Below, one piece after another: positions 3,869-57,301 of a DNA stretch of 64,000 nucleotides (position 1 is its first letter; each line of letters starts with the position of its first letter). The translations under genes and the position numbers were made by a program. The stretch is from a virus. The notes below the pieces were generated by a model that ran no database searches, was not told the origin of the DNA, and saw only the letters and a program-made list of their open reading frames with translations. The stretch covers positions 1 through 64,000 of IMG/VR virus record IMGVR_UViG_3300003323_000334; one strand, given 5' to 3'.

Positions 3869-3871
3869 TTG

Positions 3872-4516
3872 TTACTCCGAAGTGATCTTCTTTTTGGGTT
3901 TCGGAGCCTGAGCCTGCTCGGCTTCCGCCTCCGCAGACTCCTTTTTTGATTCCGACTTTTTGGGCTCCTTCATTTCCACTCTAGTTACTCCAGGAACCGC
4001 AGAAGCGACTGTCCCGTTAGATGGAGTAACTGACGAAAGCCCTCCTGGTCCGAGATGAAGTCCAGTACTAGAAGGAATCGGACCGATGACAGGAGGATTA
4101 GTTACTGGCTTTGCCTCCTGAATTTTGGGGCTTGCTTTAGGTCGATACTCTGCGAGTTTCATACCGATCGCCAGAACATAGTTCACGTAAGCGGCCACTA
4201 CTGCCGAATGAAACTCGTCGTCACCTTGTCCGATACTTTTGGTCATGTTGTCTTTTGTCGCCGGTCCCATTTGTCTAGGGACAATTGACGCCAAAAGACC
4301 ATCGTATCGAGCGAAAACGTCTTCGAGCTTTTCGTCCTTCTGAACGGCGTTCAAACCGTCCATTTTAAGACGATCGAAGAAATCAGCCACTCCCTTAGAG
4401 TGCTTACCCAATTGCTGAAGGGCAGCAGAACCTTCAGCAATCGGATCACCGAAAGCAGAGTCAAGGAGGGTCTTGACTTCAGCCAAACCCTCCAAAGACG
4501 CGACGATACCGGCCAT
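3872..4516 (-). CDS. hypothetical protein with Pro/Gly/Ser-rich and Lys/Glu-rich C-terminus
   Basis: The ORF-track start at 4522 is TTG. ATG at 4516 (MAGIVASLEG) has an AGAGGG RBS 8 nt upstream. The gene is packed 3 nt from the downstream gene. Confidence 0.5.
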   Translation of the reverse strand: MAGIVASLEGLAEVKTLLDSAFGDPIAEGSAALQQLGKHSKGVADFFDRLKMDGLNAVQKDEKLEDVFARYDGLLASIVPRQMGPATKDNMTKSIGQGDDEFHSAVVAAYVNYVLAIGMKLAEYRPKASPKIQEAKPVTNPPVIGPIPSSTGLHLGPGGLSSVTPSNGTVASAVPGVTRVEMKEPKKSESKKESAEAEAEQAQAPKPKKKITSE

Positions 4517-4538
4517 TATCAAGACCCTCTTTGTTTAG

Positions 4539-4856
4539 TTACTCTTCGTCCTTCTTGGCGCACGTCACAGCGTCTTTGATGTCATCTTTGTCCACTTCTG
4601 ACAGACGCGGAGGGAAATCACGATCTTCGACCACCCACAGGATGTTCTTAAGGAGCATCCTGCGACCCGCTCTAACTCGAGGAGTCATGGCGATTGCTTT
4701 TTCGAGAACAGTGGTCATCTTGCTGTTCTCTTCTTCCAGATCAGACACATCGACCTTTTTAGCCGCTCTATTAAGAAGATCTTCCAACCATTTCTTAATA
4801 AGGGCCCCCAATAGGGGGCCCAGGAGGGCGATGAGTTGCTTGATTAGCTCTGACAC
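4539..4856 (-). CDS. hypothetical protein
   Basis: 105 aa with a GTG start preceded by a GGAGA RBS. Same-strand tight packing and a predicted helical, charged sequence. Confidence 0.45.
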   Translation of the reverse strand: MSELIKQLIALLGPLLGALIKKWLEDLLNRAAKKVDVSDLEEENSKMTTVLEKAIAMTPRVRAGRRMLLKNILWVVEDRDFPPRLSEVDKDDIKDAVTCAKKDEE

Positions 4857-4873
4857 GGTAATTTTCTCCGGTG

Positions 4874-5155
4874 TTAAATTCCGAATTCCTCTTGAATCTT
4901 GGAGATCAATGCCGGAATATCAACCGACGCTTTATTGATCTCCGCGAACAGTGCGGTAAAGTCGCGATCGGTGACCGCTTGAACCATGCGGAGAATCGTT
5001 TCGACCTCGTCAAGCACTTCCTTACCGTACTTGTCGAGGAGAACTATCGCCCGCTCTGCTACTGAACGGATACCGATCCAAGATAGGCCGTAAGTTCCCA
5101 TCTTTTCGGTCGGCGTCACTTGATTGGCCACCGCGAAACCGATGTTCTGTTGCAT
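4874..5155 (-). CDS. hypothetical protein
   Basis: 93 aa. ATG with an AAGGA RBS, in the same-strand operon. Confidence 0.45.
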   Translation of the reverse strand: MQQNIGFAVANQVTPTEKMGTYGLSWIGIRSVAERAIVLLDKYGKEVLDEVETILRMVQAVTDRDFTALFAEINKASVDIPALISKIQEEFGI

Positions 5156-28682: not shown

Positions 28683-29432
28683 GTGGGAGTGCTTCCAGAC
28701 TGGATGATCGAGCGCGACATCAAGATCGAACCATTCGCGCCACAACAACACCGACCTGGTATCATAAGCTACGGAGTAACGAGCTACGGCTATGACACGA
28801 GGCTTGGATACAAATTCAAAGCGTTCATGCCGCGACACCCGTTTTCGATTATCGACCCGAAAAACTTCGATGACCGGATGATGGAGGAAGTTGACCTCAC
28901 TCCGCCCAAAGATCACACCTGTATAGACGAAACTGGAACTGACACGAGGCTGAGTTGCAAAGCCTGTGCATATGACAGCAACAACACGTTCATCGTCATT
29001 CCGCCTAACTCTTTCGTTCTCGGCGAATCGCTCGAACGTTTCTGGATTCCTCGAGACGTTCTGTGCGTAGTAGTAGGCAAGAGCACCTACGCCCGTACCG
29101 GACTGGTCGTCAACGTCACGCCGGGTGAACCTGAGTGGGGCGGTAAGTGGACTATCGAACTGAGCAACACCACGCCATTACCTATGAAGGTGTACGCCGG
29201 AGAAGGCATCATGCAATGCCTGTTCTTCCGAGGAGACGGTGTTTCGCAGAACGCCATCAATGCTATCCAGAAATTGCTTCCTAAACTAAGCATCAGCCAG
29301 GAAGACCAGAATAAAATCTTGACCACGCTAAACGTGAATGTCACCTGTGAAACCAGTTATGCGGACAAGAAAGGTCGTTATCAAAACCAAACCGGATTAA
29401 CTCTTCCGTTCGTAGAAGGAGAAAAGAAGTGA
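28683..29432 (+). CDS. dcd: dCTP deaminase (dUTPase superfamily) with insertions
   Basis: GTG start with an AAGGAG RBS. N-terminus [15 protein letters not shown], then GYDTRLG, and a C-terminal [21 protein letters not shown]. All are typical of Dcd. Confidence 0.8.
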
Positions 29433-37711: not shown

Positions 37712-38917
37712 GTGACCATCAAACTGAACTGGTACACGACCGAGACCGGGTTAACAGCCCGGCTCGGTATCGGGAAGCATCAAAAGACGTTCCGGATTGA
37801 ACGGCGACCCCACGCTTACTGGAAGCGGAATGGGGAAGTGTGGGAACTGTTCTTCGAGAACAAGCGGATTTACGGTCTAGAATCCGTGTACATCGCACCC
37901 GATCTGTTCGGCAAACTGACCTCCGAAGAACAGGACGAGAACGTCCGCAGAAAGCGTGCCGCGAAACAGTCCTTAAAGGACGTTGCCAACGCCATCGCTA
38001 ACGGCAATCAGGCGTCCGTTTACCAAGAAGTGCTGTATTCCCTCCCGCAACGCGACAAGTTCGGCACAAAGCAAGCCTTTATCTACGCCATGAAGGAGGT
38101 GTTTCGACTAACGCATCTTCCGATAATGACTGTGACCGAAAAAGACAACACCAAACAATGGAGTACAGACTCCGAGTTCATTAGATCGTTTCCGCAACGT
38201 CACCGAGAGCAACAGCGACGAACACACGTTGCGTCGCCGATCGCAGCACAGGAAGTAAACGTCCCAGTAAAAACTGAGGCTTTGACAGCGAAGCCTGTCA
38301 AAGCTCTGAAGTACAAAGGTCCAGCTCCTGCTAACCGGAATAAAGAGACGCTAATCCCGGCTAGCATAGGGACCAAAAAGAAGTGTCCTGTTCTGATCGA
38401 AGGAACCAAGTTTAAGCACCTGTACAAATGGGCCGAAAAGACCCGAGACTGGTACCAAGCTAGAGGATATCACGCCGGGATTCTGTTCCTGATCCATACG
38501 TTGATGCACAGCCTTCCTACGTGCAAGCAGGCGTTAGCTGCGGGTCGCAAACTGTCCCTCATTTACAGGGAAGAATACGCCGCAGTCAACGCACAGTTCG
38601 CCGCGATGGTGTCTAAAGAACCTACCGAAGTTAAAAAGGAGGTGCCTGAAAAACAGCCGAAGCTTCCTAGGTCTAAAGAAAAGGACAAATGGGGCTACCG
38701 TGTGAGCACGCGGGCTGCGGCCGTTAACGCCGTGCTCAGCAAAGTGCCAATGTCGAAAGAGAAAATCACGGTGTTGGCAAAAGCACAAGGTGACATCGGT
38801 TCACATCTGTCCACTTTGATCAAACAGAAGTTGGTGGTTCGTACAGAAGAAGGGTTATACCGACTTCGCAAGAAAAAGAAGGTACCAAAACATGGTTCAA
38901 AAAAGAGCGGATCCTGA
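37712..38917 (+). CDS. hypothetical protein with C-terminal linker-histone-like winged helix and Lys-rich tail
   Basis: 401 aa with a GTG start. The C-terminus KWGYRVSTRAAAVNAVLSKVPMSKEKITVLAKAQGDIGSHLSTLIKQKLVVRTEEGLYRLRKKKK is paralogous to 40357-40560. Confidence 0.55.
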   Translation: MTIKLNWYTTETGLTARLGIGKHQKTFRIERRPHAYWKRNGEVWELFFENKRIYGLESVYIAPDLFGKLTSEEQDENVRRKRAAKQSLKDVANAIANGNQASVYQEVLYSLPQRDKFGTKQAFIYAMKEVFRLTHLPIMTVTEKDNTKQWSTDSEFIRSFPQRHREQQRRTHVASPIAAQEVNVPVKTEALTAKPVKALKYKGPAPANRNKETLIPASIGTKKKCPVLIEGTKFKHLYKWAEKTRDWYQARGYHAGILFLIHTLMHSLPTCKQALAAGRKLSLIYREEYAAVNAQFAAMVSKEPTEVKKEVPEKQPKLPRSKEKDKWGYRVSTRAAAVNAVLSKVPMSKEKITVLAKAQGDIGSHLSTLIKQKLVVRTEEGLYRLRKKKKVPKHGSKKSGS

Positions 38918-39573: not shown

Positions 39574-40683
39574 ATGAAAATGTCCAAAGAAGACGCGATC
39601 GCAGTGCTCCTCGCTCTCAAGTTCCAGAACGCAAAGTCCTTTACGACCGCTAAGATCAAGGACAAGATCAACGCTCTGACCGAAATCGTGGACGACTCCA
39701 TGATCAAGGCTATCAAGAACGTCAAGATCGCGAAGCTGCTGCGGGATGCGGTGAAGGCCATCAAGAAGGGCACCGAAATCGAAATCGAAGACCCCAAGGC
39801 AAAGAAGGAGGCCTCCAAGAAGCCTGCAGCCAAGCCTGTGAAGGGCAAGAAGTCTAAGGCTAAGGCTGAAGAGGAGGAAGAAGAGGAAGATTCGGAGGAC
39901 GAAGAGGAAGAAGAGGAAGATTCGGAGGACGAAGAGGAAGACGAAGAAGACTCCGAGGAGGACGAAGAGGAAGACGAGACCGATGAAGACGAAGACGGCG
40001 AAGATGACGAGGACGATGATTCCGATGACGACGATGATGGAGAAGACGATGACAGTGAAGAGGACGATGACGAGTCTGTAGACGAGGATGAGGAAGAAGA
40101 GGACGACGAAGATAACGACTCTGAAGATGATGAAGAAGAGGACGACGAAGAGGACGACGAAGAGGACGACGAAGAGGACGACGAAGAGGACGACGAAGAG
40201 GACGACGAAGAGGACGACTCTGAAGATGATGAAGAAGAGGACGACGAAGAGGACGAACCCGTGTCACCCAAAAAGAAAGGTAAAGACAAAGTGAACAAGA
40301 CCAAAAAGCCGGCCGCAGCTAAGAGCGGTGCCAAGAACGCCGACAAGCCCAAGGACAAGTGGGGCGCGACTCTCGGCACGAGGACTGCCGCGATCAACGC
40401 GGCCATCACTGACAAGCCTCAAACGCTCGGAGAAATCGCGAAGCGGGCGAAGGCCGAATCCATCAGCAGCCACATTAGCAAGTTGAAGGCCGAAGGGTGG
40501 ATCGTTCGCGACGATGACGGCAGGTATTCCATCAATCCGAAGAAGAAGGCGAAGGCGGCAGTGATCCCATCGCCAAAGAAGGCCCCGAAAGAGACAGTAA
40601 AAGAGTCCGCGAAGACCAAGCCGACTGCTAAGGTCTCTAAGAAGGCCGAAGCGGCTCCTGTGAAGAAGACCAAGAAGAAGTAA
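39574..40683 (+). CDS. poly-acidic protein with linker-histone-like winged helix and Lys/Ala/Pro-rich tails
   Basis: 369 aa. A helical N-domain is followed by KKPAAKPVKGKKSKAKA, then ~130 aa made almost entirely of Asp/Glu (39866-40260). The wHTH segment is KWGATLGTRTAAINAAITDKPQTLGEIAKRAKAESISSHISKLKAEGWIVRDDDGRYSI, and the tail ends ...KKAEAAPVKKTKKK. Confidence 0.7.
   Translation: MKMSKEDAIAVLLALKFQNAKSFTTAKIKDKINALTEIVDDSMIKAIKNVKIAKLLRDAVKAIKKGTEIEIEDPKAKKEASKKPAAKPVKGKKSKAKAEEEEEEEDSEDEEEEEEDSEDEEEDEEDSEEDEEEDETDEDEDGEDDEDDDSDDDDDGEDDDSEEDDDESVDEDEEEEDDEDNDSEDDEEEDDEEDDEEDDEEDDEEDDEEDDEEDDSEDDEEEDDEEDEPVSPKKKGKDKVNKTKKPAAAKSGAKNADKPKDKWGATLGTRTAAINAAITDKPQTLGEIAKRAKAESISSHISKLKAEGWIVRDDDGRYSINPKKKAKAAVIPSPKKAPKETVKESAKTKPTAKVSKKAEAAPVKKTKKK
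40135..40218 (+). repeat. 7 perfect tandem copies of GAAGAGGACGAC inside the acidic tract
   Basis: Read directly from the sequence (encodes EEDD x7). A 30-nt unit GAGGAAGAAGAGGAAGATTCGGAGGACGAA is also duplicated at 39871-39930. Confidence 0.9.
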
Positions 40684-40707
40684 TCGATTGGCTCTTCCTC
40701 TTCGTTG

Positions 40708-40749
40708 AACAACCGGGAGCTTGAAAACTCCCGGTTGTTTCCTTTTTCC
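40708..40749 (+). terminator. rho-independent terminator
   Basis: A 12-bp perfect stem AACAACCGGGAG / CTCCCGGTTGTT with an 8-nt loop, then TCCTTTTTCC. Confidence 0.8.
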
Positions 40750-40763
40750 TACAGGAGTTTCCC

Positions 40764-41216
40764 ATGGCGATGTGTGTGTCGATCGACAAGACGTTCGAAG
40801 CGGCTCATCGTCTCCTTAATCACCCAGGCAAGTGCAGATTCTTACACGGCCACAGCTACAACCTCACCGTTACAATCGGCCGCAAAGACGGCGGCGTTGG
40901 TCCCAGACAAATGGTGATCGACTTCGGAAACGCCAAAGAAATTATAAACGCCGTAGTAGACGGCGGATGGGACCACAATACGATTCTGAACGCGATCGAT
41001 CCCTTGGCAAAACGGCCTGATCTGATCGGTCGAGATCCGATGATCGTTTCGTGTACCGGACACGATCAAGATCCTACAGCCGAAATGATCGCTTTGCGCC
41101 TCAAAGAAGACATTGAGTCGGCTTTGAACGGTCGTTTTCCGAACGCGTTCGAAATCCTCAACGTCGTCGTCAAAGAGACCGACAAGTGCTCGGCCGAATG
41201 GTACCCTGATCGTTAA
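40764..41216 (+). CDS. queD: 6-carboxy-5,6,7,8-tetrahydropterin synthase
   Basis: 150 aa. FEAAHRLLNHPGKCRFLHGHSYNLTVTI carries the T-fold C-x3-HGH signature of QueD/PTPS. Confidence 0.85.
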   Translation: MAMCVSIDKTFEAAHRLLNHPGKCRFLHGHSYNLTVTIGRKDGGVGPRQMVIDFGNAKEIINAVVDGGWDHNTILNAIDPLAKRPDLIGRDPMIVSCTGHDQDPTAEMIALRLKEDIESALNGRFPNAFEILNVVVKETDKCSAEWYPDR

Positions 41217-41228
41217 CAGGAGAGTGCG

Positions 41229-41954
41229 ATGTATCCGCTCATCATGCGACCGAACACGCAACACCCGAAAGGTCCGCTGTACCGACAAGACGGTCAACTC
41301 GACGTGGTCGAGGTGTTCGAAACGATTCAAGGCGAAGGTCCGTACACCGGTCGTCCCGCAGTGTTCGTTCGCCTCGAAGGATGCAACCTGAAGTGTCCTG
41401 GGTGTGACACCGACTACACCAGTAACCGTGAGTTGTATTCTCCGACCATGCTGTTGACTATGATCAACGACAGGTTCGCTCGGCGCAAAGAAATCGATGG
41501 TGACAACACGCTGATCGTCCTGACTGGCGGCGAACCACTCAGGCAGAACATCGCGCCATTCGTTCGTGACGCCAAGCACGATGGTTGGAACATTCAGCTG
41601 GAGACGAACGGAACACTCTTCAACGAAGACCTGCCCGTGCTCGGGATGGACATCGTGTGCAGTCCTAAAACACCTAACGTCCGAGACGAACTGAAGGATC
41701 ACATCTGCTGCCTGAAGTACGTCATCGAGGCCGGCTTCGTTAGCGAGGAAGATGGGTTGCCGATCAGTGTTATGGGTCTGAACGTCACTCCTGCTCGCCC
41801 GTGGCCAACGTTCAAAGGCGAGGTCATCGTTCAACCTTTCGATGTGGGGAACGCTCGCGCCAACATTAATAACTTGGACGCCGCGGTAGAAAGCTGTCTG
41901 AAGTTCGGGTACACACTCGGGGTTCAGGTACACAAGATTGCTCGGCTGAAGTGA
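41229..41954 (+). CDS. queE: 7-carboxy-7-deazaguanine synthase (radical SAM)
   Basis: FETIQGEGPYTGRPAVFVRLEGCNLKCPGCDTDY is the characteristic QueE N-terminus and cluster motif. Confidence 0.85.
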   Translation: MYPLIMRPNTQHPKGPLYRQDGQLDVVEVFETIQGEGPYTGRPAVFVRLEGCNLKCPGCDTDYTSNRELYSPTMLLTMINDRFARRKEIDGDNTLIVLTGGEPLRQNIAPFVRDAKHDGWNIQLETNGTLFNEDLPVLGMDIVCSPKTPNVRDELKDHICCLKYVIEAGFVSEEDGLPISVMGLNVTPARPWPTFKGEVIVQPFDVGNARANINNLDAAVESCLKFGYTLGVQVHKIARLK

Positions 41955-42155
41955 CTCGCTCAGAATCGATATTTTCGTTATGACCGAATGCTTCCGCGAA
42001 CCGAGGTGAACGATGCAGTGGATTCGTGGTCCGCCGGATGAACTAACGTCTGAAATGGGCGGCGATCGTGTGTATCGGCCATTAGACCTTCTTTGAGCGG
42101 TCGCTCATACGGAGGAAACTCGTGAGGAGAAACACCATGTAAAGTAATAAATCAA

Positions 42156-42190
42156 ACCTAGAGAGCTATTGGTAAGCTAGCTCTCTAGGT
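42156..42190 (+). other. 12-bp perfect stem-loop in the queE-folE spacer
   Basis: ACCTAGAGAGCT (42156-42167) pairs with AGCTCTCTAGGT (42179-42190) around an 11-nt loop. GTTATATAT follows, with no clean U-run. Confidence 0.6.
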
Positions 42191-42199
42191 GTTATATAT

Positions 42200-42296
42200 G
42201 GCAGGTGGAGCTAGCTCCAGCTAGGTGCTGTTATCGTACTCGGCACACTTAACTGGAGTCGGCAGCCCTCATGGGGTTGAAATCCCCAGCCTGCCC
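42200..42296 (+). other. tRNA-like three-way-junction RNA element (not a canonical tRNA)
   Basis: Acceptor-like 7-bp stem GGCAGGT (42200-42206) with GCCTGCC (42289-42295). T-arm-like TGGGG-TTGAAAT-CCCCA (42272-42288). Central long hairpin CTCCAG (42215-42220) with CTGGAG (42253-42258), enclosing GTGCTG/CGGCAC. No D-arm or 7-nt anticodon loop could be drawn. Confidence 0.35.
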
Positions 42297-42317
42297 TTCC
42301 TTTAAAAGGAGTATTTT

Positions 42318-42905
42318 ATGAAGTTCAACGCCACTGCCGTAAGCTACGCTGCTACCCAGGATTTGTTCCGAGAACTGATCAGCAGGTTCGACAACGAGCC
42401 TTCACGTCCAGGATTAAAAGATACTCCGGCTCGCTTAGAGAAAGCCTGGCAGGAAATGTTTTCAGGTTACTTCGTGACCGCCGAAAACATCGCCAAAATG
42501 CTCACCACGTTCGAAGAAGAAAAATCGGACGATATGGTGATTCAGAGGTTCATTCCGTTCAGCAGCACCTGTGAACATCATTTACTCCCATTTATGGGGC
42601 ACGCCACCATCGCGTACATTCCGGACGGACGCATCTTAGGACTGTCTAAATTCAGTAGGTTGCTAGACGTGTTCACCAAACGAATGCAGAATCAGGAACG
42701 CATTACGGTACAAGTCGCCGAAGCGTTTATGGAGCATCTGAAGCCGAAGGGTGCGGCTTGCGTTCTTACGGCGCAACACCTCTGCATGGAGTGTAGAGGT
42801 GTTAAAGTAGCAGGCGTCGAAACGACGACCTGTTGCCTGCGAGGCTGTTTCAGTTCCGAACCTACGCGATCTGAGTTCCTCAGGTTCGCAACAACGAAAG
42901 GGTAA
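42318..42905 (+). CDS. folE: GTP cyclohydrolase I
   Basis: PFSSTCEHHLLPFMGHATIAYIP, GLSKFSRLLDVFTKRMQNQERIT and TAQHLCMECRGVK are FolE type I signatures. AAGGAG RBS present. Confidence 0.9.
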   Translation: MKFNATAVSYAATQDLFRELISRFDNEPSRPGLKDTPARLEKAWQEMFSGYFVTAENIAKMLTTFEEEKSDDMVIQRFIPFSSTCEHHLLPFMGHATIAYIPDGRILGLSKFSRLLDVFTKRMQNQERITVQVAEAFMEHLKPKGAACVLTAQHLCMECRGVKVAGVETTTCCLRGCFSSEPTRSEFLRFATTKG

Positions 42906-42906
42906 C

Positions 42907-43191
42907 ATGGGCTTCAAGCAACAGCTTTTGAACTTCGAGAAGGCAAAGGTAAAAACGAAACCGCCGCAAACGCAAAAGAAAACCGAAGCAAAGCTCCCGA
43001 AAAAGGGAACACCTGAGTCCGCGTACAGAGATGGAGTGAAGGACATGGAACAACTTCGTTCCATGTTCAGCAAACGGTTTTGTAAACACCTGGTGTTCAT
43101 TCTCGGATTCTCCAGAAAAGGACCGCAGAGCGATCCGTTAATCAGGTCGTACTGTGACGGTTTTAACGACAAACTGGAGGACAAGGCGTGA
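42907..43191 (+). CDS. hypothetical basic protein
   Basis: 94 aa, 1 nt after the folE stop and overlapping the next gene (GTGA). Confidence 0.45.
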   Translation: MGFKQQLLNFEKAKVKTKPPQTQKKTEAKLPKKGTPESAYRDGVKDMEQLRSMFSKRFCKHLVFILGFSRKGPQSDPLIRSYCDGFNDKLEDKA

Positions 43192-43655
43192 CAACGCTCG
43201 AAGAATTCAATCAATGGTTTCAGACCAACAAATCGGTAGTAACGCGACGTTCTCCGTACGACGCGGCTAAACTCGCTTGGTTTGCTGCAAAGCAAACTCC
43301 TTTATTTGACGCAGGAAAATCGCCAGCAGATGTTTCGACGTTCATCATCGTTAAAACCGAGTTCGTTGGTTTTCACCGGTGGTGTGATGCGCCTGTGAAT
43401 GTGTCGTTCCTTCGCCAATTCCATCGACACGTGTTCAAAGTGGAGGTGACAATCAGAGTAGATCATCAAAATCGGGCCCTAGAGTTCTTCACCGAGCAAC
43501 AGAAAGTGGAGCTGTTCTGTCAAAAGTTTCACAACCAACATTTTGAAAAGTCCTGCGAAATGTTGGCTCAAGAAATCCTAGACAGTAATCCGGAGTATCA
43601 TTCCGTCAAGGTTAGCGAAGACGGTGAGAACGCCGGTATTGTGATTCGTAACTAA
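43188..43655 (+). CDS. divergent T-fold (QueD/PTPS-like) paralogue candidate
   Basis: 155 aa. FVGFHRWCDAPVNVSFLRQFHRHVFKVEVTIRV mirrors the F-x-A-x-H ... HGH-x-(Y/F)-x-V-x-V layout of QueD, but with HRH and no Cys four residues before it. Confidence 0.4.
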   Translation: MTTLEEFNQWFQTNKSVVTRRSPYDAAKLAWFAAKQTPLFDAGKSPADVSTFIIVKTEFVGFHRWCDAPVNVSFLRQFHRHVFKVEVTIRVDHQNRALEFFTEQQKVELFCQKFHNQHFEKSCEMLAQEILDSNPEYHSVKVSEDGENAGIVIRN

Positions 43656-43676
43656 CCTTTAACTTCTGAGTACGCC

Positions 43677-44966
43677 ATGCTCTACTACGTCCCTCTTGAG
43701 TGCTACCGTCAGCGTTACACCATGCAACTCTCAGCCCCAAAAGTCGGGTGGTTCGAGAGTAAATGGATCGAGCACAACATTCCATACGTTCGAGTCGAAC
43801 CGAGTTACGCCGCTCTCGGCGAAAACTTTCCGAACAGAATGATTAACAACGGATCGGTACTCGATGCTGTAGGACGCAGCCGATACGCCATGAGTCAAAT
43901 CGACAACCTGCTGCTGATGCTGGATCGAGGAGAAATCAAGGACTCTGACGTAATCTACTTTGACGACTTCTGGCACCCAGGTATCGAGGCGTTTAAATAC
44001 ACCTGTGACATTTTAGGTAAACGACCACGAATGTACGCCTACTGCTGGGCTCAGTCGGTCGATCAGTTCGACTTCACCAACAAGATGAAACACTGGATTC
44101 GTCTGATCGAAAAAGGATACAGCGCGATACTCGATGGGGTGTTCGTTGCGAACACAGGCCTAAAGGAGCTGCTGTACGATCACGCCGTGTGTGACAGTCT
44201 AAAAATCCATGTGGTCGGTCTACCGTTCGACACCAAAGAAGTGCTGAGTCGAATGCCGGATTCGTACCGCGAGTTCATCTTAAATCCGCAATCACAAGAC
44301 ACGCCTAGTCCTAGACTGGATCGGGTAGTGTTCTCGTCTAGATGGGACTCAGAAAAGAACCCGATATTCTTTTTGAGGCTCGCCGCACTTGCAGCACGCG
44401 ATCCGGAGATGAGTCACGTCAAGTTCGCAGTGTGTTCGTCGGCACCGGAAATGAAAAGCAACAACAGCGGGCTTTTGACCGTGCTGTTCGGAGCAACAAA
44501 GGATCTGTCGAACTTCGAACTTCACACCAATCTGTCTAAAGAGGCGTACTACAAGCTGTTGGCCGAGTCCAAAGTTCAGTTCAACTGTGCCGACCAAGAT
44601 TGGACTTCGTTCACACTGCTGGAAGCGGTTACTGCCGGATGCTATCCACTCTATCCGTACTTCAGGAGTTTTTCGGAAGTGTTCTTGAACGGGTCGAGGT
44701 TTTTGTACGAGCACAAAAACCTCGACGCGGCGTATTCGAAACTGAAACAGTCTATATTAAACCAGTACCCGTTGCCAGATTCAGGAAAGTGGTCACACGA
44801 AGAGATCATAGGTCGCATGTGGATCGCCAAACGATTCAACGCCACTTGGTACCGAATCGCCAAGCATATGGGCGTCATTCCTGAAAACTTCTCTACCACT
44901 GTAGAGCACATCACCCCACCGTACGATCGCGAGCAAGTGAAGCGTGTCGATTGGGCGCGTCTCTAG
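43677..44966 (+). CDS. GT-B fold glycosyltransferase (candidate)
   Basis: 429 aa. The C-terminal half VVFSSRWDSEKNPIFFLRLA ... FTLLEAVTAGCYPLYPYF fits the GT-B donor-binding domain and E-x7-E-type region. Confidence 0.55.
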   Translation: MLYYVPLECYRQRYTMQLSAPKVGWFESKWIEHNIPYVRVEPSYAALGENFPNRMINNGSVLDAVGRSRYAMSQIDNLLLMLDRGEIKDSDVIYFDDFWHPGIEAFKYTCDILGKRPRMYAYCWAQSVDQFDFTNKMKHWIRLIEKGYSAILDGVFVANTGLKELLYDHAVCDSLKIHVVGLPFDTKEVLSRMPDSYREFILNPQSQDTPSPRLDRVVFSSRWDSEKNPIFFLRLAALAARDPEMSHVKFAVCSSAPEMKSNNSGLLTVLFGATKDLSNFELHTNLSKEAYYKLLAESKVQFNCADQDWTSFTLLEAVTAGCYPLYPYFRSFSEVFLNGSRFLYEHKNLDAAYSKLKQSILNQYPLPDSGKWSHEEIIGRMWIAKRFNATWYRIAKHMGVIPENFSTTVEHITPPYDREQVKRVDWARL

Positions 44967-45001
44967 AATCGCTTTACGTCGCGTTTTAAGCGTGTTCGTT
45001 T

Positions 45002-45044
45002 CGCGATCGGGCGCCGAGTAGCGTTGCGCCCGATCGCGTGTTTT
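45002..45044 (+). terminator. rho-independent terminator after the glycosyltransferase gene
   Basis: A 13-bp perfect stem CGCGATCGGGCGC / GCGCCCGATCGCG with an 11-nt loop, then TGTTTT. Confidence 0.7.
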
Positions 45045-45130
45045 AGACGCGTTTAATCGCATTTGGCGCGTGCGCGAAAGCGACGCGCAATAATAAACGA
45101 AACTATACATCCTTGTGCGAGACTTCTACC

Positions 45131-45871
45131 ATGACCTCAACCTATACCACGCTCACGCATCCTATCCTTCAAAACACACTCCAAACCAACTCGATCAATT
45201 TCGGCATCACGACCAGATGTACCATGATTTGCCCGAAATGCTCGATCGACGTTCCTGGAATTAAGAACAGGAAAGAAGCTCAAGACGCCTCAATCTCTAC
45301 GATTCATTGGACGGCATCTGTGCTGACCGCTCGCGGTACATTCCAGCGAGTTCACATCACAGGAGGCGAACCGACGATTCACCATGCTTTCGGTTTGATG
45401 ACACCAGAGTTCAAAGACTGGTTCAAGGCTGAGTACCTTACTCTTGAAACCAACGGCGCTCTAGTCTTGAAGCACATCGAGGTCATCAAAAAGCACTTCG
45501 ACCTGGTGTTCATAACGCATTACGTTAAGGGCGCAATTTACCCGGACAATTTCGACAACACCGAAATCATCAAACGAGCTAAACAAGAACTCGGCGACAA
45601 GTTGATAACTGAGCCGCCGGTCCGACATGACCTAGAGCACATTAAATTGTCCTTGAGAACCGAGGATCAGAAGCGAGCGGAACACGTCGCCTGTTCCAAG
45701 TTTTACGAACCGGGATTACCGTGTGCGTGGTACGACGGATATTTGTACCCGTGCTGCGTCAGTTTCGGAATCGATCGCGACAGGTACAAAGTGCCGGTAA
45801 CCGAAGACTGGCGAACAGTGATTCAAGACCAGAACAAAGGGTGCAGCAATTGCCTCTATCGGGGAACCTAA
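45131..45871 (+). CDS. radical SAM enzyme with Cys-rich C-terminal (SPASM/twitch-like) region
   Basis: ATG 45131; the track start at 45113 is TTG. C-x3-C-x2-C motif in GITTRCTMICPKCS, SAM-binding ITGGEPT, and C-terminal CAWYDGYLYPCC ... GCSNC. Confidence 0.7.
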   Translation: MTSTYTTLTHPILQNTLQTNSINFGITTRCTMICPKCSIDVPGIKNRKEAQDASISTIHWTASVLTARGTFQRVHITGGEPTIHHAFGLMTPEFKDWFKAEYLTLETNGALVLKHIEVIKKHFDLVFITHYVKGAIYPDNFDNTEIIKRAKQELGDKLITEPPVRHDLEHIKLSLRTEDQKRAEHVACSKFYEPGLPCAWYDGYLYPCCVSFGIDRDRYKVPVTEDWRTVIQDQNKGCSNCLYRGT

Positions 45872-45872
45872 A

Positions 45873-46880
45873 ATGAGCGGTGCTAATCTAGGACACAAAC
45901 GTAAAGGCCGAGCCAAGACCATTGTGTCTCTAGACGGCCTGCCTCGCAGGTGCCGGAGCTTCATGCCTGATTCCGGTGCCCACAGTTTGTTCAACCTACA
46001 TTGCTTCGAAACCGCTAAACAAAACGGTAAAGAAGTCCGAGTTTTCAAAAAACCGAACGAACGGTATAAATGGTACTCACCTGACGGTAACAAGCTGTCT
46101 AAAGAGTTCCGTGCGTATCTGGACAAATACGTCGGCTTCATCGACAAGTACGGTAAAGGAATAGACCACTACGTTACAGTGGACGCGATCTACAATCCGG
46201 AGATATCATGGAAGAGTCTCAAGTACCTAGAGTCGTGGGGTCTGAAACCGATTCCAGTAATCCACCACAGAACCTCGATGCGCTGGATCGAAAAGCATTT
46301 GGACTCTGGTTACAACTACATCGGGCTTGGAGGTCTCGGGCAGCAAAGCACCAAGAACACTTACACGATATGGGCGGATCAGGTGTTCGACCGAATATGT
46401 CAGGGGAGCAAACGTCTGCCGTGTGTTAAGACTCACGGCTTTGCGATGACGAGCTATTCTCTAATACTCCGCTACCCTTGGTGGAGCGTTGACAGTTCTT
46501 CCGTGTTCAAATGTGCCGGTAACGGTAGCATCTTCGTTCCACACAAGAGACAAGGCTCTTTCACTTTCGGTGAGGAGCCTTACGTCATGGGTGTTAGTCA
46601 CAGGTCTAGTGCAAAGCAGTCCGACAAGCGACACTACGACAACCTAACAAAAGGTGAAAAGGCGATCGTCGCCGAATGGCTGAAGTCGATCGACATGATC
46701 CTAGGAACTGTGTCAGAAGACGGAGAAATGGACGAGTACGGAGTGTACTCGTCTTACAACGCCAGAGTGGTCGCTAATCTGAGGTTTTTCGAACGCTTTT
46801 TGGACTGGCTACCAAAATGGCCTTGGTCGTTTAAAATTCGACCGAAACGCGGCTTCTTGAAATGGGAGGATTTGACGTGA
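45873..46880 (+). CDS. dpdA: DpdA-type DNA (guanine) transglycosylase, TGT superfamily
   Basis: 335 aa. FMPDSGAHSLF, YIGLGGLG, KTHGFAMTS and WWSVDSSS match the phage DpdA/TGT motif series. It starts 1 nt after the radical-SAM gene stop. Confidence 0.8.
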   Translation: MSGANLGHKRKGRAKTIVSLDGLPRRCRSFMPDSGAHSLFNLHCFETAKQNGKEVRVFKKPNERYKWYSPDGNKLSKEFRAYLDKYVGFIDKYGKGIDHYVTVDAIYNPEISWKSLKYLESWGLKPIPVIHHRTSMRWIEKHLDSGYNYIGLGGLGQQSTKNTYTIWADQVFDRICQGSKRLPCVKTHGFAMTSYSLILRYPWWSVDSSSVFKCAGNGSIFVPHKRQGSFTFGEEPYVMGVSHRSSAKQSDKRHYDNLTKGEKAIVAEWLKSIDMILGTVSEDGEMDEYGVYSSYNARVVANLRFFERFLDWLPKWPWSFKIRPKRGFLKWEDLT

Positions 46881-46981
46881 GTGTTGATACCGGATTGATC
46901 GTAACTATTCAGTTGGCAGCTATTGCCTTCATTCTGTTGATGATCGTTAAACTCCTTGCTAACATCAAAGAGAAGTTGTAA
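46877..46981 (+). CDS. possible 34-aa membrane peptide
   Basis: GTG start (GTGA overlap with dpdA) and stop overlapping the next ATG (TAATG). Product VSVDTGLIVTIQLAAIAFILLMIVKLLANIKEKL. Below the track cutoff. Confidence 0.3.
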   Translation: MSVDTGLIVTIQLAAIAFILLMIVKLLANIKEKL

Positions 46982-47325
46982 TGAGCCAATGGAAGCCAAA
47001 CGGTAGACACCAATTCGACTGTTACAACAGGTGCCGCAAATGTAATTTGACCAGACGTGAGTTGGAATTGGAGCGGCTTGCATCCGGCATGGTCATATCG
47101 TGCAGCCGTCTTACCAAAAGAATCAATGACGATCTTCGGAAAAAGAAGGCCGAAGAAAAAGAAAAGCAGCATACAGAAACAAAAGAACTGGTGAAGCGGA
47201 TTATTGCTAGTTTGGACACAGGTCCGATATTACAAGAGACTCCTATCGTTCATTTAAGGAACTGTTATGAGGTTGTTTCTAAGCGGCGGGAGTTCGATTC
47301 CGGAAGTGACAATGGACAAGCCTGA
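46981..47325 (+). CDS. hypothetical protein
   Basis: 114 aa ATG ORF with a CYNRCRKCN motif. Confidence 0.4.
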   Translation: MSQWKPNGRHQFDCYNRCRKCNLTRRELELERLASGMVISCSRLTKRINDDLRKKKAEEKEKQHTETKELVKRIIASLDTGPILQETPIVHLRNCYEVVSKRREFDSGSDNGQA

Positions 47326-47461
47326 TATAATGCTGTCGTTCTACGTTGACGTAGGTAAGAAAGGACTACCTAACGCCAGAATGAGAGCAATACTTAAAAT
47401 CAGGACGTGCTCTCGCTGGATCAAGATATTGAACCATACGATCAAGAAAGGCGGCATTTGA
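47312..47461 (+). CDS. possible 49-aa protein
   Basis: ATG 47312 (MDKPDIMLSFYVDVGKK). Its stop overlaps the clamp ATG as TGATG, and it fills an otherwise empty gap. Confidence 0.3.
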   Translation: MDKPDIMLSFYVDVGKKGLPNARMRAILKIRTCSRWIKILNHTIKKGGI

Positions 47462-49022: not shown

Positions 49023-50246
49023 ATGAAATTTAATGGACGAGGCTTCTTCGCTCTGTCAACGCTCATGCAGACGAAGAAGCCTCTACCGATCGTAGCCAAC
49101 TGCCAATCGTGTCGGTTGTGTACCACGGGTTGTAAAACTCCATACATGAAACCGACAGGAAAGGGAAAGCAGAAGATCCTGATCGTCGGCGAGTTTCCGG
49201 ACTCGGCAGACGACAGAACAGGAAAACCTTTTAGAGGAGAATCCGGGAAGCGAGCCAGATCGGAAGTGTCGGCAGCCGGATTAGACACGGACGCTGACGT
49301 AGTTTGGACCAACGCTCTGATATGCAACCCGCCAGGCGATCGCCCTCCGATGTCGAAGATCATTCCGTACTGTCGTCCGAACTTGATCAAAACGATCGAG
49401 TCGGTCAAACCGAACGTCATCTTGTTAATGGGGTCTATCGCGGTTAAAAGTCTGATAGGCTTTCTTTGGAAAGAAGACGTAGGCAAACTAAACAGATGGA
49501 TCGGATGGCGTATTCCGTGTCAAAGGTTTAATGCATGGATATGTCCGACTTATCATCCAGATCACCTGAGGAACAAGAATCATCCGGTAATGGACTTGAT
49601 GTTCAAGCAGCAGGTCCGATGGGCGTGTTCACAAACGAAACCTCCTTGGGAAACTGTTCCTGATTTAAGGAGTAGAGTCCGCGTCGTATTCGACCCTGAC
49701 GAAGCCGCATCGATCATCCGAAAAATGACGGATAATGTGAAACGGCCGGTTGCGTTCGACTATGAAACCAACATGCTGAAACCGGAGAACGAGCGGGCCA
49801 AGATCGTGTGTTGCTCCGTCAGTGACGGAAAGACCACGATCGCGTTCCCATGGATCGGTGAAGCGGTCAAAGCGATGAAGGCGTTTTTCCGGTCGAACGT
49901 TCCTAAAATCGCCTCGAACATGAAGTTCGAAGATCGTTGGACGAATTGTAAAGTCGGTGTAAGCGTTCGAAACTGGAAGCTGGACACGATGTTGGCGGCG
50001 CACGTTCTGGACAACAGACCAGAAATCACAAGTATCAAGTTTCAGGCTTTCGTCCGTTTAGGACAAGAAAGCTACGACGACCACATTAAGCCGTTCTTGA
50101 AATCGAAAGAGTCCGGCGGGTACGCAGAAAACCGAATTGATGAAGTCGATCCGCACGACCTGATGACCTACTGCGCCTTAGACTCTCTACTCGAATGGCG
50201 CGTAGCCTTAAAGCAATACGAGGAGCTTAGCAATGATCACGGCTAA
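49023..50246 (+). CDS. family-4 UDG-like domain fused to DnaQ-like 3'-5' exonuclease (N-terminal part of a split family-A polymerase)
   Basis: UDG4 motifs: CQSCRLC, ILIVGEFPDSADDRTGKPFRGESGK, VWTNALICNPP. Exonuclease motifs: VAFDYETNML (Exo I) and YCALDSLL (Exo III). Confidence 0.75.
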   Translation: MKFNGRGFFALSTLMQTKKPLPIVANCQSCRLCTTGCKTPYMKPTGKGKQKILIVGEFPDSADDRTGKPFRGESGKRARSEVSAAGLDTDADVVWTNALICNPPGDRPPMSKIIPYCRPNLIKTIESVKPNVILLMGSIAVKSLIGFLWKEDVGKLNRWIGWRIPCQRFNAWICPTYHPDHLRNKNHPVMDLMFKQQVRWACSQTKPPWETVPDLRSRVRVVFDPDEAASIIRKMTDNVKRPVAFDYETNMLKPENERAKIVCCSVSDGKTTIAFPWIGEAVKAMKAFFRSNVPKIASNMKFEDRWTNCKVGVSVRNWKLDTMLAAHVLDNRPEITSIKFQAFVRLGQESYDDHIKPFLKSKESGGYAENRIDEVDPHDLMTYCALDSLLEWRVALKQYEELSNDHG

Positions 50247-54533: not shown

Positions 54534-56024
54534 ATGAAACTCCCGACGCTGATTCCTACAACGAAACAGGCCTACGAGTTTTTCCATCGTGGAACTTTAG
54601 CCTTCAGCCAAATGGAAGCTAGAGGAATTAAGATCGATGTGGATTATCTCGAAGCGACTATGACGGACGTGGGAAATCAGATCAAGCAGCTGGAGAGGGA
54701 GTTCAAAGGATCTAAAATCTGGAAGCAGTGGCAGCGACGCTTCGGGGACAAAGCAAACGTTCAAAGCGTGCCTCAATTAGGCACGCTTCTTAAAAGCATT
54801 GGCTACAAGTCGATCGAAAAGACCGATACAGGAAAGGACAAATGGGACGAACGCGCCGTTGAGCGAATCGGGTTGCCGGAACTCAACACCTACATCCTGA
54901 TGAAGAAGCTCAAGAAGGCGAACGGCACTTACTTGAAAGGGATTCATCGCGAGCTAGACTCGGATGGATTTCTTCATCCGTCGTACAATTTGGCGGGAGG
55001 CCTCGAAGACGACCAAAAAGGTGGTGCTATGAGCTATCGTGGCAGCTCTAGCAATCCAAACTTCACGAACATCCCGATCAGAAATAAGACCATTGGGAAG
55101 CTCATCAGAAAAGCGGTAGTCGGGTACGGTGATTTTGAAATCGGTGAAATCGATCACAGCACGATCGAAGTCCGGGTTGCAGGTATGGTGACCCGGGATA
55201 AGCGGCTGATGAACTACGTCAAGAACAGTCCGCCGCTAGACATGCACCGTGATCGAGCGATGGAACTTTTCTTTCTGAAAGAAGATCAGGTCGTAAAGAA
55301 AGGTACCAGAGACGCGGCCAAAAACAAGTTCGTATTTCCACAGTTCTATGGATCGTTCTACGTCGATTGCGCCGAAGCAATTTGGGAGGCTATGGAACGA
55401 GGTGAGTACAAAGTAGGTAAACTGGACGAGAACGGTAACGTTGTTGATTCGGACGTACTGATCAAAGATCACCTGAAAAAGCACGGCGTAACTAAACGCG
55501 GTTTGTGCGATGAGGAACAAGCTCCTAAAAAGGGGACGTTTGAGTATCACGTTAAGACCGTCGAAGACAAAATGTGGAACGAGGTCTTCAAGGAGTATAC
55601 AGCCTGGAAGAAGGCTTCGTACAACAAGTACCTTAAAACAGGCGAGGTTCAACTTCCTACAGGATTCATAGCCCGCGGACCGTACAGACGAAATCAAGTG
55701 TTGAATCTGCCGATTCAAGGACCGGCGTTCCATATTCTGCTTTGGGGGATCATAGAACTTCAGGCCGAGCTAAAACGGCTGAAAATGAAGTCCTACATAT
55801 TCGGCCAAATTCACGACTGCATATTGTGCTACATCCACAAGAAAGAGCGGCAGCAGTTCTTGAACATGGCTAAGGAAATTATGACACAAAAGATCCGCAA
55901 ACACTGGAGTTGGATTAATCTTCCTTTGGAGATTGAGGTCGATATCGTCCCTAGTGGGCTAAGTTGGAATGAAAAGCAACCGTGGCACCAAACTAAAGAG
56001 GGGTTATGGGTGAGCAAAGCGTAA
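54534..56024 (+). CDS. family-A DNA polymerase, polymerase domain only
   Basis: 496 aa. Motif B is RDAAKNKFVFPQFYGS and motif C region is IFGQIHDCILCY. No exonuclease domain is present here; that domain is encoded at 49023-50246. Confidence 0.85.
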   Translation: MKLPTLIPTTKQAYEFFHRGTLAFSQMEARGIKIDVDYLEATMTDVGNQIKQLEREFKGSKIWKQWQRRFGDKANVQSVPQLGTLLKSIGYKSIEKTDTGKDKWDERAVERIGLPELNTYILMKKLKKANGTYLKGIHRELDSDGFLHPSYNLAGGLEDDQKGGAMSYRGSSSNPNFTNIPIRNKTIGKLIRKAVVGYGDFEIGEIDHSTIEVRVAGMVTRDKRLMNYVKNSPPLDMHRDRAMELFFLKEDQVVKKGTRDAAKNKFVFPQFYGSFYVDCAEAIWEAMERGEYKVGKLDENGNVVDSDVLIKDHLKKHGVTKRGLCDEEQAPKKGTFEYHVKTVEDKMWNEVFKEYTAWKKASYNKYLKTGEVQLPTGFIARGPYRRNQVLNLPIQGPAFHILLWGIIELQAELKRLKMKSYIFGQIHDCILCYIHKKERQQFLNMAKEIMTQKIRKHWSWINLPLEIEVDIVPSGLSWNEKQPWHQTKEGLWVSKA

Positions 56025-56243: not shown

Positions 56244-56528
56244 ATGATCACCATAGTGATCGCAGTCACCTGTGCGGCGCCAGTTCCGACTCATTTAATG
56301 AAGGAACGTGCTCCTGTCGGAACATGGGTGAATCATGGATACGGCTACTTGAGAGTAGCGGAAATAAAAACCAAAAAGAACGGTGATAAGTTCTACCGGT
56401 TAACTGACGTGGTCGAGTCCAACAAAAATTGGAAAATGAATTGGGTCGCAGAACACAATCTGATTGCTGTAATGGAACATCCGGATAAGTTCTTCTTGAT
56501 ATTTAGCGACCCTGAGTTCAACAAATGA
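56244..56528 (+). CDS. hypothetical protein
   Basis: 94 aa with an AAAGGAG RBS. Confidence 0.45.
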   Translation: MITIVIAVTCAAPVPTHLMKERAPVGTWVNHGYGYLRVAEIKTKKNGDKFYRLTDVVESNKNWKMNWVAEHNLIAVMEHPDKFFLIFSDPEFNK

Positions 56529-57301
56529 AAACCTACAAGTTCAAAAGAGGAGTTCTGATCAACGGAGACTGTTTAGACGTCCTTCCAAAACTCAAAGCCG
56601 AATCGGTGGATTTAGTAGTAGCCGATCCGCCGTTTAACATCGGTTACGAATACGACCAATATTTCGACAATTTGCTACCGGAAGAATACTACGCTTGGTC
56701 GTGTAAGTGGATCGACTGCTGCGTTCGCGCACTGAAGCCAACGGGTTCGATGTTCGTGGTGATCGGCGACGAGTACGCGGCGGAGTTGAAGTTCGCGTTA
56801 GACCGCAAACTTCATATGCGGAACTGGATTATCTGGTACTACACTTTTGGTGTGTACTCGAAACACAAATTCGGAAGAGATCATGCTCACATACTTTATT
56901 ACTGCAAAGATCCAAAACAACGAACCTTTCGAGCCGATGATATTAAGGTGCCTTCTAGAAGGCAAACACTATATCAAGATAAACGGGCAGACGCTAAAGG
57001 TCGAGTTCCTGGAGACGTTTGGACCTTTCCTCGAGTCTGTGGAACCTTCAAAGAGCGGAACACCGTCGGCCACAAATGTCAACTCCCCGAATCCCTCGTT
57101 GATCGAATTGTTAAGGTCGCTTCGCGCCCAGGTGGACTCGTTCTCGACCCGTTTGCTGGAACTGGAACGACGCTTGCAGTTTCAAAGCGACTTAAAAGGC
57201 GGTTTATAGGCGTCGAACTGTCAACGCGATATTCACGCTACATTGCGTCGAGAGTGCGCAACGTGCGATCGGGCGCCGATAATAGCTCTGTGCGAAAATA
57301 A
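56525..57301 (+). CDS. DNA methyltransferase, beta-class N6-adenine/N4-cytosine type
   Basis: Motif IV DLVVADPPFNIGYEY precedes motif I VLDPFAGTGTT (beta permutation). No restriction endonuclease partner is seen. Confidence 0.75.
   Translation: MKTYKFKRGVLINGDCLDVLPKLKAESVDLVVADPPFNIGYEYDQYFDNLLPEEYYAWSCKWIDCCVRALKPTGSMFVVIGDEYAAELKFALDRKLHMRNWIIWYYTFGVYSKHKFGRDHAHILYYCKDPKQRTFRADDIKVPSRRQTLYQDKRADAKGRVPGDVWTFPRVCGTFKERNTVGHKCQLPESLVDRIVKVASRPGGLVLDPFAGTGTTLAVSKRLKRRFIGVELSTRYSRYIASRVRNVRSGADNSSVRK

Follow-up and report, generated by a model that had tools for sequence, protein, structure and literature searches.

The gene set formed by FolE, QueD, QueE, DpdL and a DpdA-family transglycosylase, without QueC, has been published as the one that leads to 2'-deoxy-7-deazaguanosine (dDG) in phage DNA, as in the Cellulophaga phage phiST (Cui et al., 2023, NAR 51:9214, PMC10516641). 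DpdL is a paralogue of QueD in which the signature LxxxHRHxF replaces the QueD motif CxxxHGH, and it was proposed to be a decarboxylase of 7-carboxy-7-deazaguanine (CDG); in the published survey DpdL and QueC were mutually exclusive (PMC10516641). The Nonagvirus phages, such as 9g and CAjan, modify their DNA by post-replicative base exchange, encode QueC or Gat-QueC and insert preQ0 (which becomes G+ in 9g), and they have neither DpdL nor a glycosyltransferase (GT) (PMC6884629). We have analyzed 64,000 nucleotides of a virus sequence (IMG/VR record IMGVR_UViG_3300003323_000334, positions 1 to 64,000; from here on, the window), in which an operon for 7-deazaguanine DNA modification lies on the + strand at 40764-46880, within a cluster that extends to 46981.

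The window has the same core as phiST, i.e., FolE, QueD, QueE, DpdL and a DpdA-family transglycosylase with no QueC, and in both the LxxxHRHxF signature is conserved and the cluster lies beside replication genes. They differ in what accompanies this core. Phage phiST has a DpdA3, a MazG-like protein and a small AAA_18-domain (P-loop) protein and no GT, while the window has a DpdA1-like enzyme plus a predicted GT4-like GT, a radical S-adenosylmethionine (SAM) enzyme with a predicted twitch domain and an ORFan. Unlike the Nonagvirus phages, the window has DpdL and a GT, although base exchange after replication is proposed for it as well, and these phages provide the closest cultured homologues of its DpdA, QueE and FolE (31-50% identity). 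We conclude that the island belongs to the known DpdL/dDG kind, and that the DpdL-GT partnership points to an uncharacterised, possibly glycosylated deazaguanine. The new elements are this conserved partnership and the sugar-type radical SAM enzyme, neither of which belongs to any described pathway. In the literature we found no paper linking a glycosyltransferase to DpdL or to deazaguanine DNA.

The DpdL operon

The operon is tightly packed on the + strand, with queD, queE, folE and the gene for the DpdA-type transglycosylase together. The first genes encode QueD, the 6-carboxy-tetrahydropterin synthase (150 aa, 40764-41216; PF01242, E 1.3e-24; phrog_2389, E 3.5e-27), in which the CxxxHGH motif appears in the alignment as CRFLHGH, and QueE, the radical SAM 7-carboxy-7-deazaguanine synthase (241 aa, 41229-41954; phrog_2076, E 2.4e-53; PF04055, E 1.2e-7), with 43% identity to the QueE of phage 9g. 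FolE, a GTP cyclohydrolase I of 195 aa, follows at 42318-42905 (PF01227, E 4e-61; phrog_2197, E 2.4e-63). A first-pass annotation, made from the sequence alone, had described here an island for 7-deazaguanine DNA modification with extra enzymes, and this was confirmed. QueD, QueE, FolE and the DpdA-type enzyme were identified at high significance, the GT-B glycosyltransferase and the second radical SAM enzyme are present, and all the genes named were found on the + strand at the coordinates given in this work (ORF, i.e., open reading frame, list, Pfam and PHROG matches). In one close relative, L091 (L-numbers designate the related contigs or loci compared), the QueE gene is interrupted by an intein with Hint/Intein_splicing domains (1378-2670).

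The 155 aa protein encoded at 43188-43655, with a QueD-like T-fold, had been taken for a degenerate T-fold paralogue in the first-pass annotation, which did list dDG and dpdL as known. By its sequence it is instead a well-conserved DpdL, the proposed CDG decarboxylase. It reads ...FLRQFHRHVFKVEV..., it has the SCEM and SEDGEN blocks common to DpdL proteins, and its residues 75-83, LRQFHRHVF, are the LxxxHRHxF signature, of which H79, R80 and H81 are invariant across 11 DpdL sequences. Comparison of the DpdL and QueD alignments by hhalign covered the whole domain (probability 94.8%, E 5e-8) and placed Leu75 of DpdL over the catalytic Cys of QueD. A match to phrog_17812 (E 2e-16) was also found. 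Among the proteins retrieved by tblastn were CGPG_00067 of phiST (35% identity, E 7e-5 over the whole phage collection and 3e-9 against the loci set) and gp125 of the Acidovorax phage ACP17 (33%, E 4e-5 and 2e-9, respectively), the two DpdLs named as such in PMC10516641. The family is large, with 2132 representative clusters at E<=1e-3. Conservation is confined to residues ~50-153, the first ~50 being an N-terminal extension unique to this phage. In the 64 kb window, this DpdL is accompanied by DpdA, FolE, QueD and QueE and not by QueC.

The absence of QueC noted in the first-pass annotation was borne out by all our searches, which covered the ~64 kb window of an 80,131 bp contig. With tblastn, phage QueC and the Gat-QueC of 9g gave a best E value of only 0.19 against the window, the PP-loop motif SGGxDS was absent from any credible window ORF, and Pfam, run on 49 of the larger ORFs, gave no QueC match. 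Neither was QueC found in any of 80 related GT loci. Since the cluster matches the published dDG gene set, DpdL included, the absence of queC is expected and not anomalous.

The same annotation had gone further and held that the pathway stops at CDG and continues by undescribed chemistry, a view that is not borne out, given that DpdL is present and that the gene set is the published one for dDG. It would imply that DpdL is not a decarboxylase and that the GT and the radical SAM enzyme build on the carboxyl of CDG (either free or within the DNA), e.g., to form a glycosyl ester. Decarboxylation by DpdL is indeed only predicted and the heterologous tests failed (PMC10516641). Besides, dCDG occurs in nature, a DpdA2 inserts CDG at low efficiency, and for attachment a carboxylate is more suitable than a bare C-H. 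Against this, phiST, which has the same DpdL signature, has dDG with no CDG detected, and the invariant residues of DpdL are identical in GT-linked and GT-free phages. Glycosyl esters are also labile, and GT4 enzymes are not known to produce them. We consider that a pathway ending at CDG is quite improbable.

Glycosyltransferase and radical SAM enzyme

The gene after dpdL (43677-44966) encodes a protein of 429 aa that we confidently predict, from its structural model, to be a GT4-like (retaining-type) glycosyltransferase of GT-B fold. The AlphaFold2 (AF2) model, built on 36 homologues, had a mean predicted local distance difference test (pLDDT) of 91.9 and a predicted template modeling score (pTM) of 0.91, and Foldseek against the PDB matched it to GlgM, BshA, MshA and PglA (E about 1e-11, probability 1.00, TM-score up to about 0.7). 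The window sequence alone had a single Pfam match, PF13524 (E 0.0076), under the cut-off. A match to PF00534, PF13692 or PF13524 is present in many of the homologues that are 42-52% identical to it; in the homologue of the Synechococcus phage BUCT-ZZ01, PF13692 was found with E 2.5e-6. Invariant or nearly so in the 36 sequences are R222-x4-K227 and E316, which by analogy with the GT4 motif we take to be putative donor-binding residues. We found at least 336 related proteins and at least 590 IMG/VR contigs with relatives, and only three contigs, all from metagenome-assembled genomes, among 185,579 bacterial and archaeal genomes. The GT thus belongs to a large family almost restricted to phages. 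The T4 alpha- and beta-glucosyltransferases and other phage DNA GTs for 5-hydroxymethyl pyrimidines, GT-B proteins that use a nucleotide-sugar donor and act on a modified base in phage DNA, are a precedent for the step that we propose below, but the window GT has no specific similarity to them and their hydroxymethyl acceptor is absent here. Its top structural matches were bacterial GT4 enzymes; among the 50 viral matches listed, the only DNA GT came in 44th place.

This family is closely connected with DpdL. We examined the 80 best viral loci of the at least 590 GT-bearing IMG/VR contigs and found DpdL within a few kb of the GT in 75; the other five are truncated, with a contig end at most 0.9 kb from one side of the GT. 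Both genes were on the same strand in all 73 pairs that could be scored, mostly adjacent or with one small ORF between them. FolE was present in 54 of the 80 loci and QueE in 47. In the clade of the window the order QueD-QueE-FolE-DpdL-GT-DpdA-clamp-UDG/exo (UDG, uracil-DNA glycosylase; exo, exonuclease) is kept, and many relatives have the stop of the GT gene adjoining or overlapping the start of dpdA. The GT-DpdL pair appears over unrelated backbones, namely ~80 kb phages with a split PolA, T4-like myoviruses and jumbo contigs, and at least four cultured phages have it: Acidovorax ACP17 (gp124-gp125), Synechococcus BUCT-ZZ01, Burkholderia BCSR5 and Sinorhizobium Phosso. ACP17 and BUCT-ZZ01 are T4-like myoviruses. 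The accessible part of PMC10516641 does not mention the GT homologue gp124 of ACP17 and reports no DNA composition for this phage. In the T4-like group, an NAD-dependent sugar epimerase/dehydratase (PF01370, E 5e-53) lies beside the module in 31 loci, a cytidylyltransferase-like protein in 19 and a phosphoribosyltransferase in 15. That nucleotide-sugar genes accompany the GT is consistent with a genuine transfer of sugar from a donor that the phage provides.

The second radical SAM enzyme (252 aa, 45113-45871; the gene caller start at 45131 gives 246 aa) lies between the GT and dpdA. It conserves C36xxxC40xxC43 and GGEPT, and has five invariant Cys in its C-terminal part (C194, C214, C215, C244 and C247). 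Its PF04055 match reached 28.1 bits against a cut-off of 29.5, PF04055 being recorded for its homologues, and hhalign matched it to QueE over the core only (98.3%), a generic likeness. The AF2 model (pLDDT 84) was best matched by the twitch-domain sugar dehydrogenases, with SpeY (7wzx) found by Foldseek over the full length (E 1.7e-9, TM-score 0.64) and BtrN at E 2e-4; the weaker matches included viperin-like enzymes, BtrN, MoaA, AbmM and BlsE. All of these enzymes but MoaA have sugars, cyclitols or nucleotides as their substrates. SpeY (spectinomycin) and BtrN (butirosin) have the same arrangement of a CxxxCxxC core and a C-terminal auxiliary Fe-S domain, but their identity to the window protein is about 20% or less and they use aminocyclitols or sugars of antibiotic pathways. 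Of the earlier description as radical-SAM/SPASM-like, the first part stands, while the auxiliary domain appears to be of the twitch type rather than a full SPASM. The idea that the island holds extra tailoring genes gained from the comparative data, by the near-obligate neighbourhood of GT and DpdL and by the resemblance of this enzyme to sugar-modifying twitch enzymes.

Among 5.8 billion proteins, only 23 belong to the family of this radical SAM enzyme. In L091 a member lies in the same slot, between GT and DpdA, and in L088 at a different position, while none was found in the 80 IMG/VR GT loci; it is a lineage-specific accessory gene of a small sub-lineage. Among the relatives, the variable positions near the GT are otherwise taken by other radical SAM enzymes (L013, L010/L016, L088, L012) or by a SAM methyltransferase (L024), a pattern of conserved core plus lineage-specific tailoring enzymes. 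Distant homologues (about 31% identity) are found in two phage islands, L089 6398-11283 and L090 686-6930, together with GT2, Gly_transf_sug and TylF-type O-methyltransferase genes, as well as dCMP deaminase and Thy1 genes. These islands may represent another sugar-based DNA hypermodification cluster.

We have also detected, in about half of the GT loci, a family of ~150 aa with the motif F.G.EaEGP..G..TLFvPG...YFGAGN and no Pfam or PHROG match, that we call the Y domain. It is absent from the window. It is fused to the C-terminus of DpdL in L030 (9235-9996), L026 (4836-5618), L011 (9253-9996), L014 (8834-9730) and L015 (9129-9998), adjoins DpdL as a separate gene in L008 (9483-9998), L018 (1218-1670), L019 (9564-9995) and L020 (2922-3374), and has a distant member in gp122 of ACP17 (L005 6297-6695). 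That it could be a cluster-less QueE fragment was rejected (hhalign probability 3.7%). Within the clade of the window, an extra radical SAM enzyme other than QueE was present in 7 of 11 loci lacking the Y domain and in at most 1 of 14 having it, raw counts that ignore phylogeny. Both may be functional alternatives.

Could the GT and the radical SAM enzyme be only co-inherited with a dDG system like that of phiST, and act elsewhere, on another DNA position, on a virion or host protein or on the cell envelope? The DNA of phiST has 100% dDG with no GT, 7-deazaguanine (DG) has no chemical handle for glycosylation, GT4-like enzymes are frequent in many other phage contexts, and the second radical SAM enzyme is found in few relatives only. 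All this agrees with mere co-inheritance. What is hard to explain without a shared function is the linkage of GT and DpdL described above (75 of 80 loci, on the same strand, usually adjacent and over unrelated backbones), to which the GT stops that abut or overlap the dpdA starts have to be added. In addition, no other modified-base pathway was seen in the window. We judge that a system making only dDG, with the GT working on something else, is unlikely, although it deserves weight.

The transglycosylase

The DpdA-type DNA transglycosylase (335 aa, 45873-46880; phrog_887, E 4.9e-30) is, as far as its sequence indicates, closest to the DpdA1 type. By tblastn it was matched to that of the Edwardsiella phage ZHS (34% identity, E 1e-30), and it has 31% identity over 70% of its length to the DpdA of 9g (E 4e-19); with both it shares invariant DSGA, HG and SVDS blocks. 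Over 16 sequences, that of 9g among them, D33-S-G-A, H188-G189 and D207 do not vary. By analogy with tRNA-guanine transglycosylase (TGT) enzymology, the DSGA, HG and SxDS blocks would be putative catalytic ones. The Pfam search gave no match to PF01702, PADLOC gave no bDpdA match, and neither phmmer nor a profile search against the PDB sequences found a TGT or DpdA structure.

The closest cultured relatives of this enzyme (9g, ZHS, Nonagvirus) belong to preQ0/G+ systems, and there are documented cases of phages with partial pathways in which the host takes part. It could therefore be imagined that the phage only raises the supply of CDG, which the QueC of the host would convert into preQ0 for insertion as dPreQ0 by the DpdA1-like enzyme, DpdL and the GT being unrelated to the process. 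The distribution of the genes speaks against it. DpdL and QueC exclude each other in the published survey (PMC10516641) and in 80 of the 80 loci compared here, and the phages keep FolE, QueD and QueE and omit only QueC, always with DpdL instead, which points to a different end product. We find completion by the host very improbable.

Two observations concern DpdA in related loci. In L009 (a 25 kb contig) the clamp gene comes right after QueD-QueE-FolE-DpdL-GT (2777-4988). DpdA is missing from its usual place and may lie elsewhere. In 49 T4-like loci a conserved protein of 518 aa is encoded ~3 kb upstream of the GT (L073 2138-3694 and 48 homologues, e.g., L066 6553-8103). Its LGDSGGFQ motif is TGT-like, but its assignment as a DpdA was rejected as unproven (hhalign probability against DpdA 0.3%), and it had no Pfam, PHROG or PDB match. 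It may represent an unrecognised transglycosylase family.

Proposed pathway

We read the island as a QueC-independent, DpdL-type operon for 7-deazaguanine DNA modification that has been extended by a sugar-adding step, a reading whose chances of being right or wrong seem to us evenly balanced. By the established enzymology of their families, FolE, QueD and QueE make CDG from GTP. FolE would convert GTP into dihydroneopterin triphosphate, QueD would turn this into 6-carboxy-tetrahydropterin and QueE would produce CDG. DpdL, with a Leu at the position of the catalytic Cys of QueD, would then remove the carboxyl of CDG to give DG, as proposed in the literature. Judging by homology, the DpdA-type transglycosylase would swap guanine in DNA for DG after replication. 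From linkage and fold, the GT4-like enzyme would use a nucleotide sugar to form a glycosylated deazaguanine, with the DNA-borne base as the most likely acceptor, and in this sub-lineage the SpeY/BtrN-like twitch enzyme would oxidise or otherwise tailor that sugar. The predicted product is DNA with some or all of the G replaced by dDG bearing a (modified) sugar, which would resist restriction and other DNA-targeting defences.

As to the chemistry, Pfam scans detected no hydroxymethylase in the window, ThyX is present, and no other handle or pathway for base modification was seen. Since DG has no hydroxyl, the linkage would be a C-glycoside at the nucleophilic C7 or else an N- or O-glycoside elsewhere on the base. 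Our most specific proposal is that DpdL-GT phages replace guanine by a 7-deazaguanine glycosylated on the deazapurine, with a C-glycoside at C7, the electron-rich carbon of the pyrrole, as one possibility, and that the radical SAM enzyme of this sub-lineage oxidises the sugar. We advance it tentatively, as something possible rather than probable.

Several points weigh against a glycosylated product. C7 of DG has no hydroxyl or amine and offers no obvious acceptor to a GT, and a C-, N2- or O6-glycoside would be without precedent. The acceptor could alternatively be CDG, the free base or a pterin intermediate rather than DNA. That the GT makes a soluble pterin glycoside is, all the same, less likely, since the operon also contains QueE and DpdA. 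The window DpdA is closest to preQ0-inserting enzymes, and the part of the genome inspected is ~64 kb of the 80,131 bp contig. With tblastn we found no GT homologue in phiST, which makes plain dDG, and so the GT is not needed for base replacement; several other cultured DpdL phages are also without it. The GT would then define a sub-type of DpdL systems and not a universal part of them. Finally, the activity of DpdL is unproven even for its founding members, heterologous expression having failed in the original study (PMC10516641).

Small ORFs and genomic setting

A terminator-like hairpin with a 13 bp stem and a T-rich tail (40707-40740, + strand; a pattern match in a consensus scan) lies just upstream of queD and probably marks, from its sequence, the 5' boundary of the transcription unit of the cluster. 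Between queE and folE there is a non-coding spacer of 363 nt (41955-42317, + strand) with strong hairpins, long and perfect. Its codon score was negative in the three frames tested and it folds significantly better than shuffled controls (z = -3.84). It matched nothing in Rfam, and its DNA is not conserved among relatives. Over the whole cluster, Rfam gave no riboswitch or other known RNA at the gathering threshold or at E<=1, and there were no tRNAs.

The ORF of 94 aa (42907-43191) is tightly packed between folE and dpdL, has a basic N-terminus and a codon score of 0.23, similar to that of the neighbouring genes, and is probably coding. It matched only itself in 5.8e9 proteins and nothing in the related loci. 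It is an ORFan, and a role as conserved component of the module was ruled out, as there is no homologue anywhere. A hydrophobic peptide (46862-46981, overlapping the end of dpdA; 39 aa from the ATG or 34 aa from an internal GTG) had a positive codon score of 0.37 and no homologue in related loci. Downstream, an ORF of 64 aa (MRLFLSGGSS..., 47267-47461), without Pfam match, has homologues (MIIYFAG..., MIVFFSG...) directly after DpdA in L008, L010, L011, L013, L016, L018, L026 and L088, and overlaps a weakly coding ORF of 114 aa (46981-47325). The ORF of 64 aa also suggests that the clamp gene starts near 47461 and not at 47407. The ORFs of 94, 39 and 64 aa are on the + strand.

The window has the appearance of a lytic tailed phage. 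The terminase, small terminase and portal genes are on the - strand at 1-20 kb, and the + strand encodes a dCTP-deaminase-like protein, SNF2 helicase, DnaB-like helicase, clamp, a split family-A polymerase, class II ribonucleotide reductase, ThyX, an N6/N4 DNA methyltransferase, clamp loader, RecA and a 5'-3' exonuclease. In the split polymerase, 49023-50246 encodes a UDG-like domain fused to the 3'-5' exonuclease and 54534-56024 the polymerase domain. The ~4 kb between them contain the ribonucleotide reductase, with a TSCPD domain, and ThyX. The methyltransferase (56525-57301; PF01555, E 9e-53) belongs to the replication module, and the phage DNA probably carries a second and independent modification due to it. 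The dCTP-deaminase-like protein (249 aa, 28683-29432; PF22769, E 2e-27; phrog_1663, E 5e-44) has ~60 extra C-terminal residues beyond the family match.

Two paralogues located directly upstream of the cluster (37712-38917 and 39574-40683) have in common a C-terminal domain KDKWG...R.AA.NA..., the second with a low-complexity tract of ~150 Asp/Glu residues, and relatives have homologues of them at the same position. Positions 1-120 are inside another acidic-repeat coding region, on the - strand. By megablast the island had no match in 50,697 phage records. Exact copies of the DpdA, the GT and neighbouring proteins were found on a 6.2 kb root-metagenome contig (L003) and on the 80,131 bp JGI contig.

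Implications for phage DNA modification

Even if the product is only dDG, the island makes a missing queC something ordinary for the dDG pathway. If the GT acts on the deazaguanine, it would represent a new class of DNA hypermodification and, with an acceptor without hydroxyl handle, may involve new glycosyltransferase chemistry. The lack of product from DpdL and DpdA alone in E. coli (PMC10516641) may also be due to a missing partner enzyme. The module would be carried by at least 590 IMG/VR viral contigs.

To our knowledge, eight 7-deazaguanine derivatives are known in phage DNA, none of them bearing a sugar, and the sugar modifications of phage DNA that we know of are all on hydroxymethyl-pyrimidines. 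If the product proposed here is real, we are aware of no earlier case of a purine analogue that bears a sugar in natural DNA. Its existence would matter to defences based on restriction, CRISPR or glycosylases, to nanopore and other sequencing artefacts in metagenomes, and to the enzymes that could be used in 7-deaza-dG DNA labelling.

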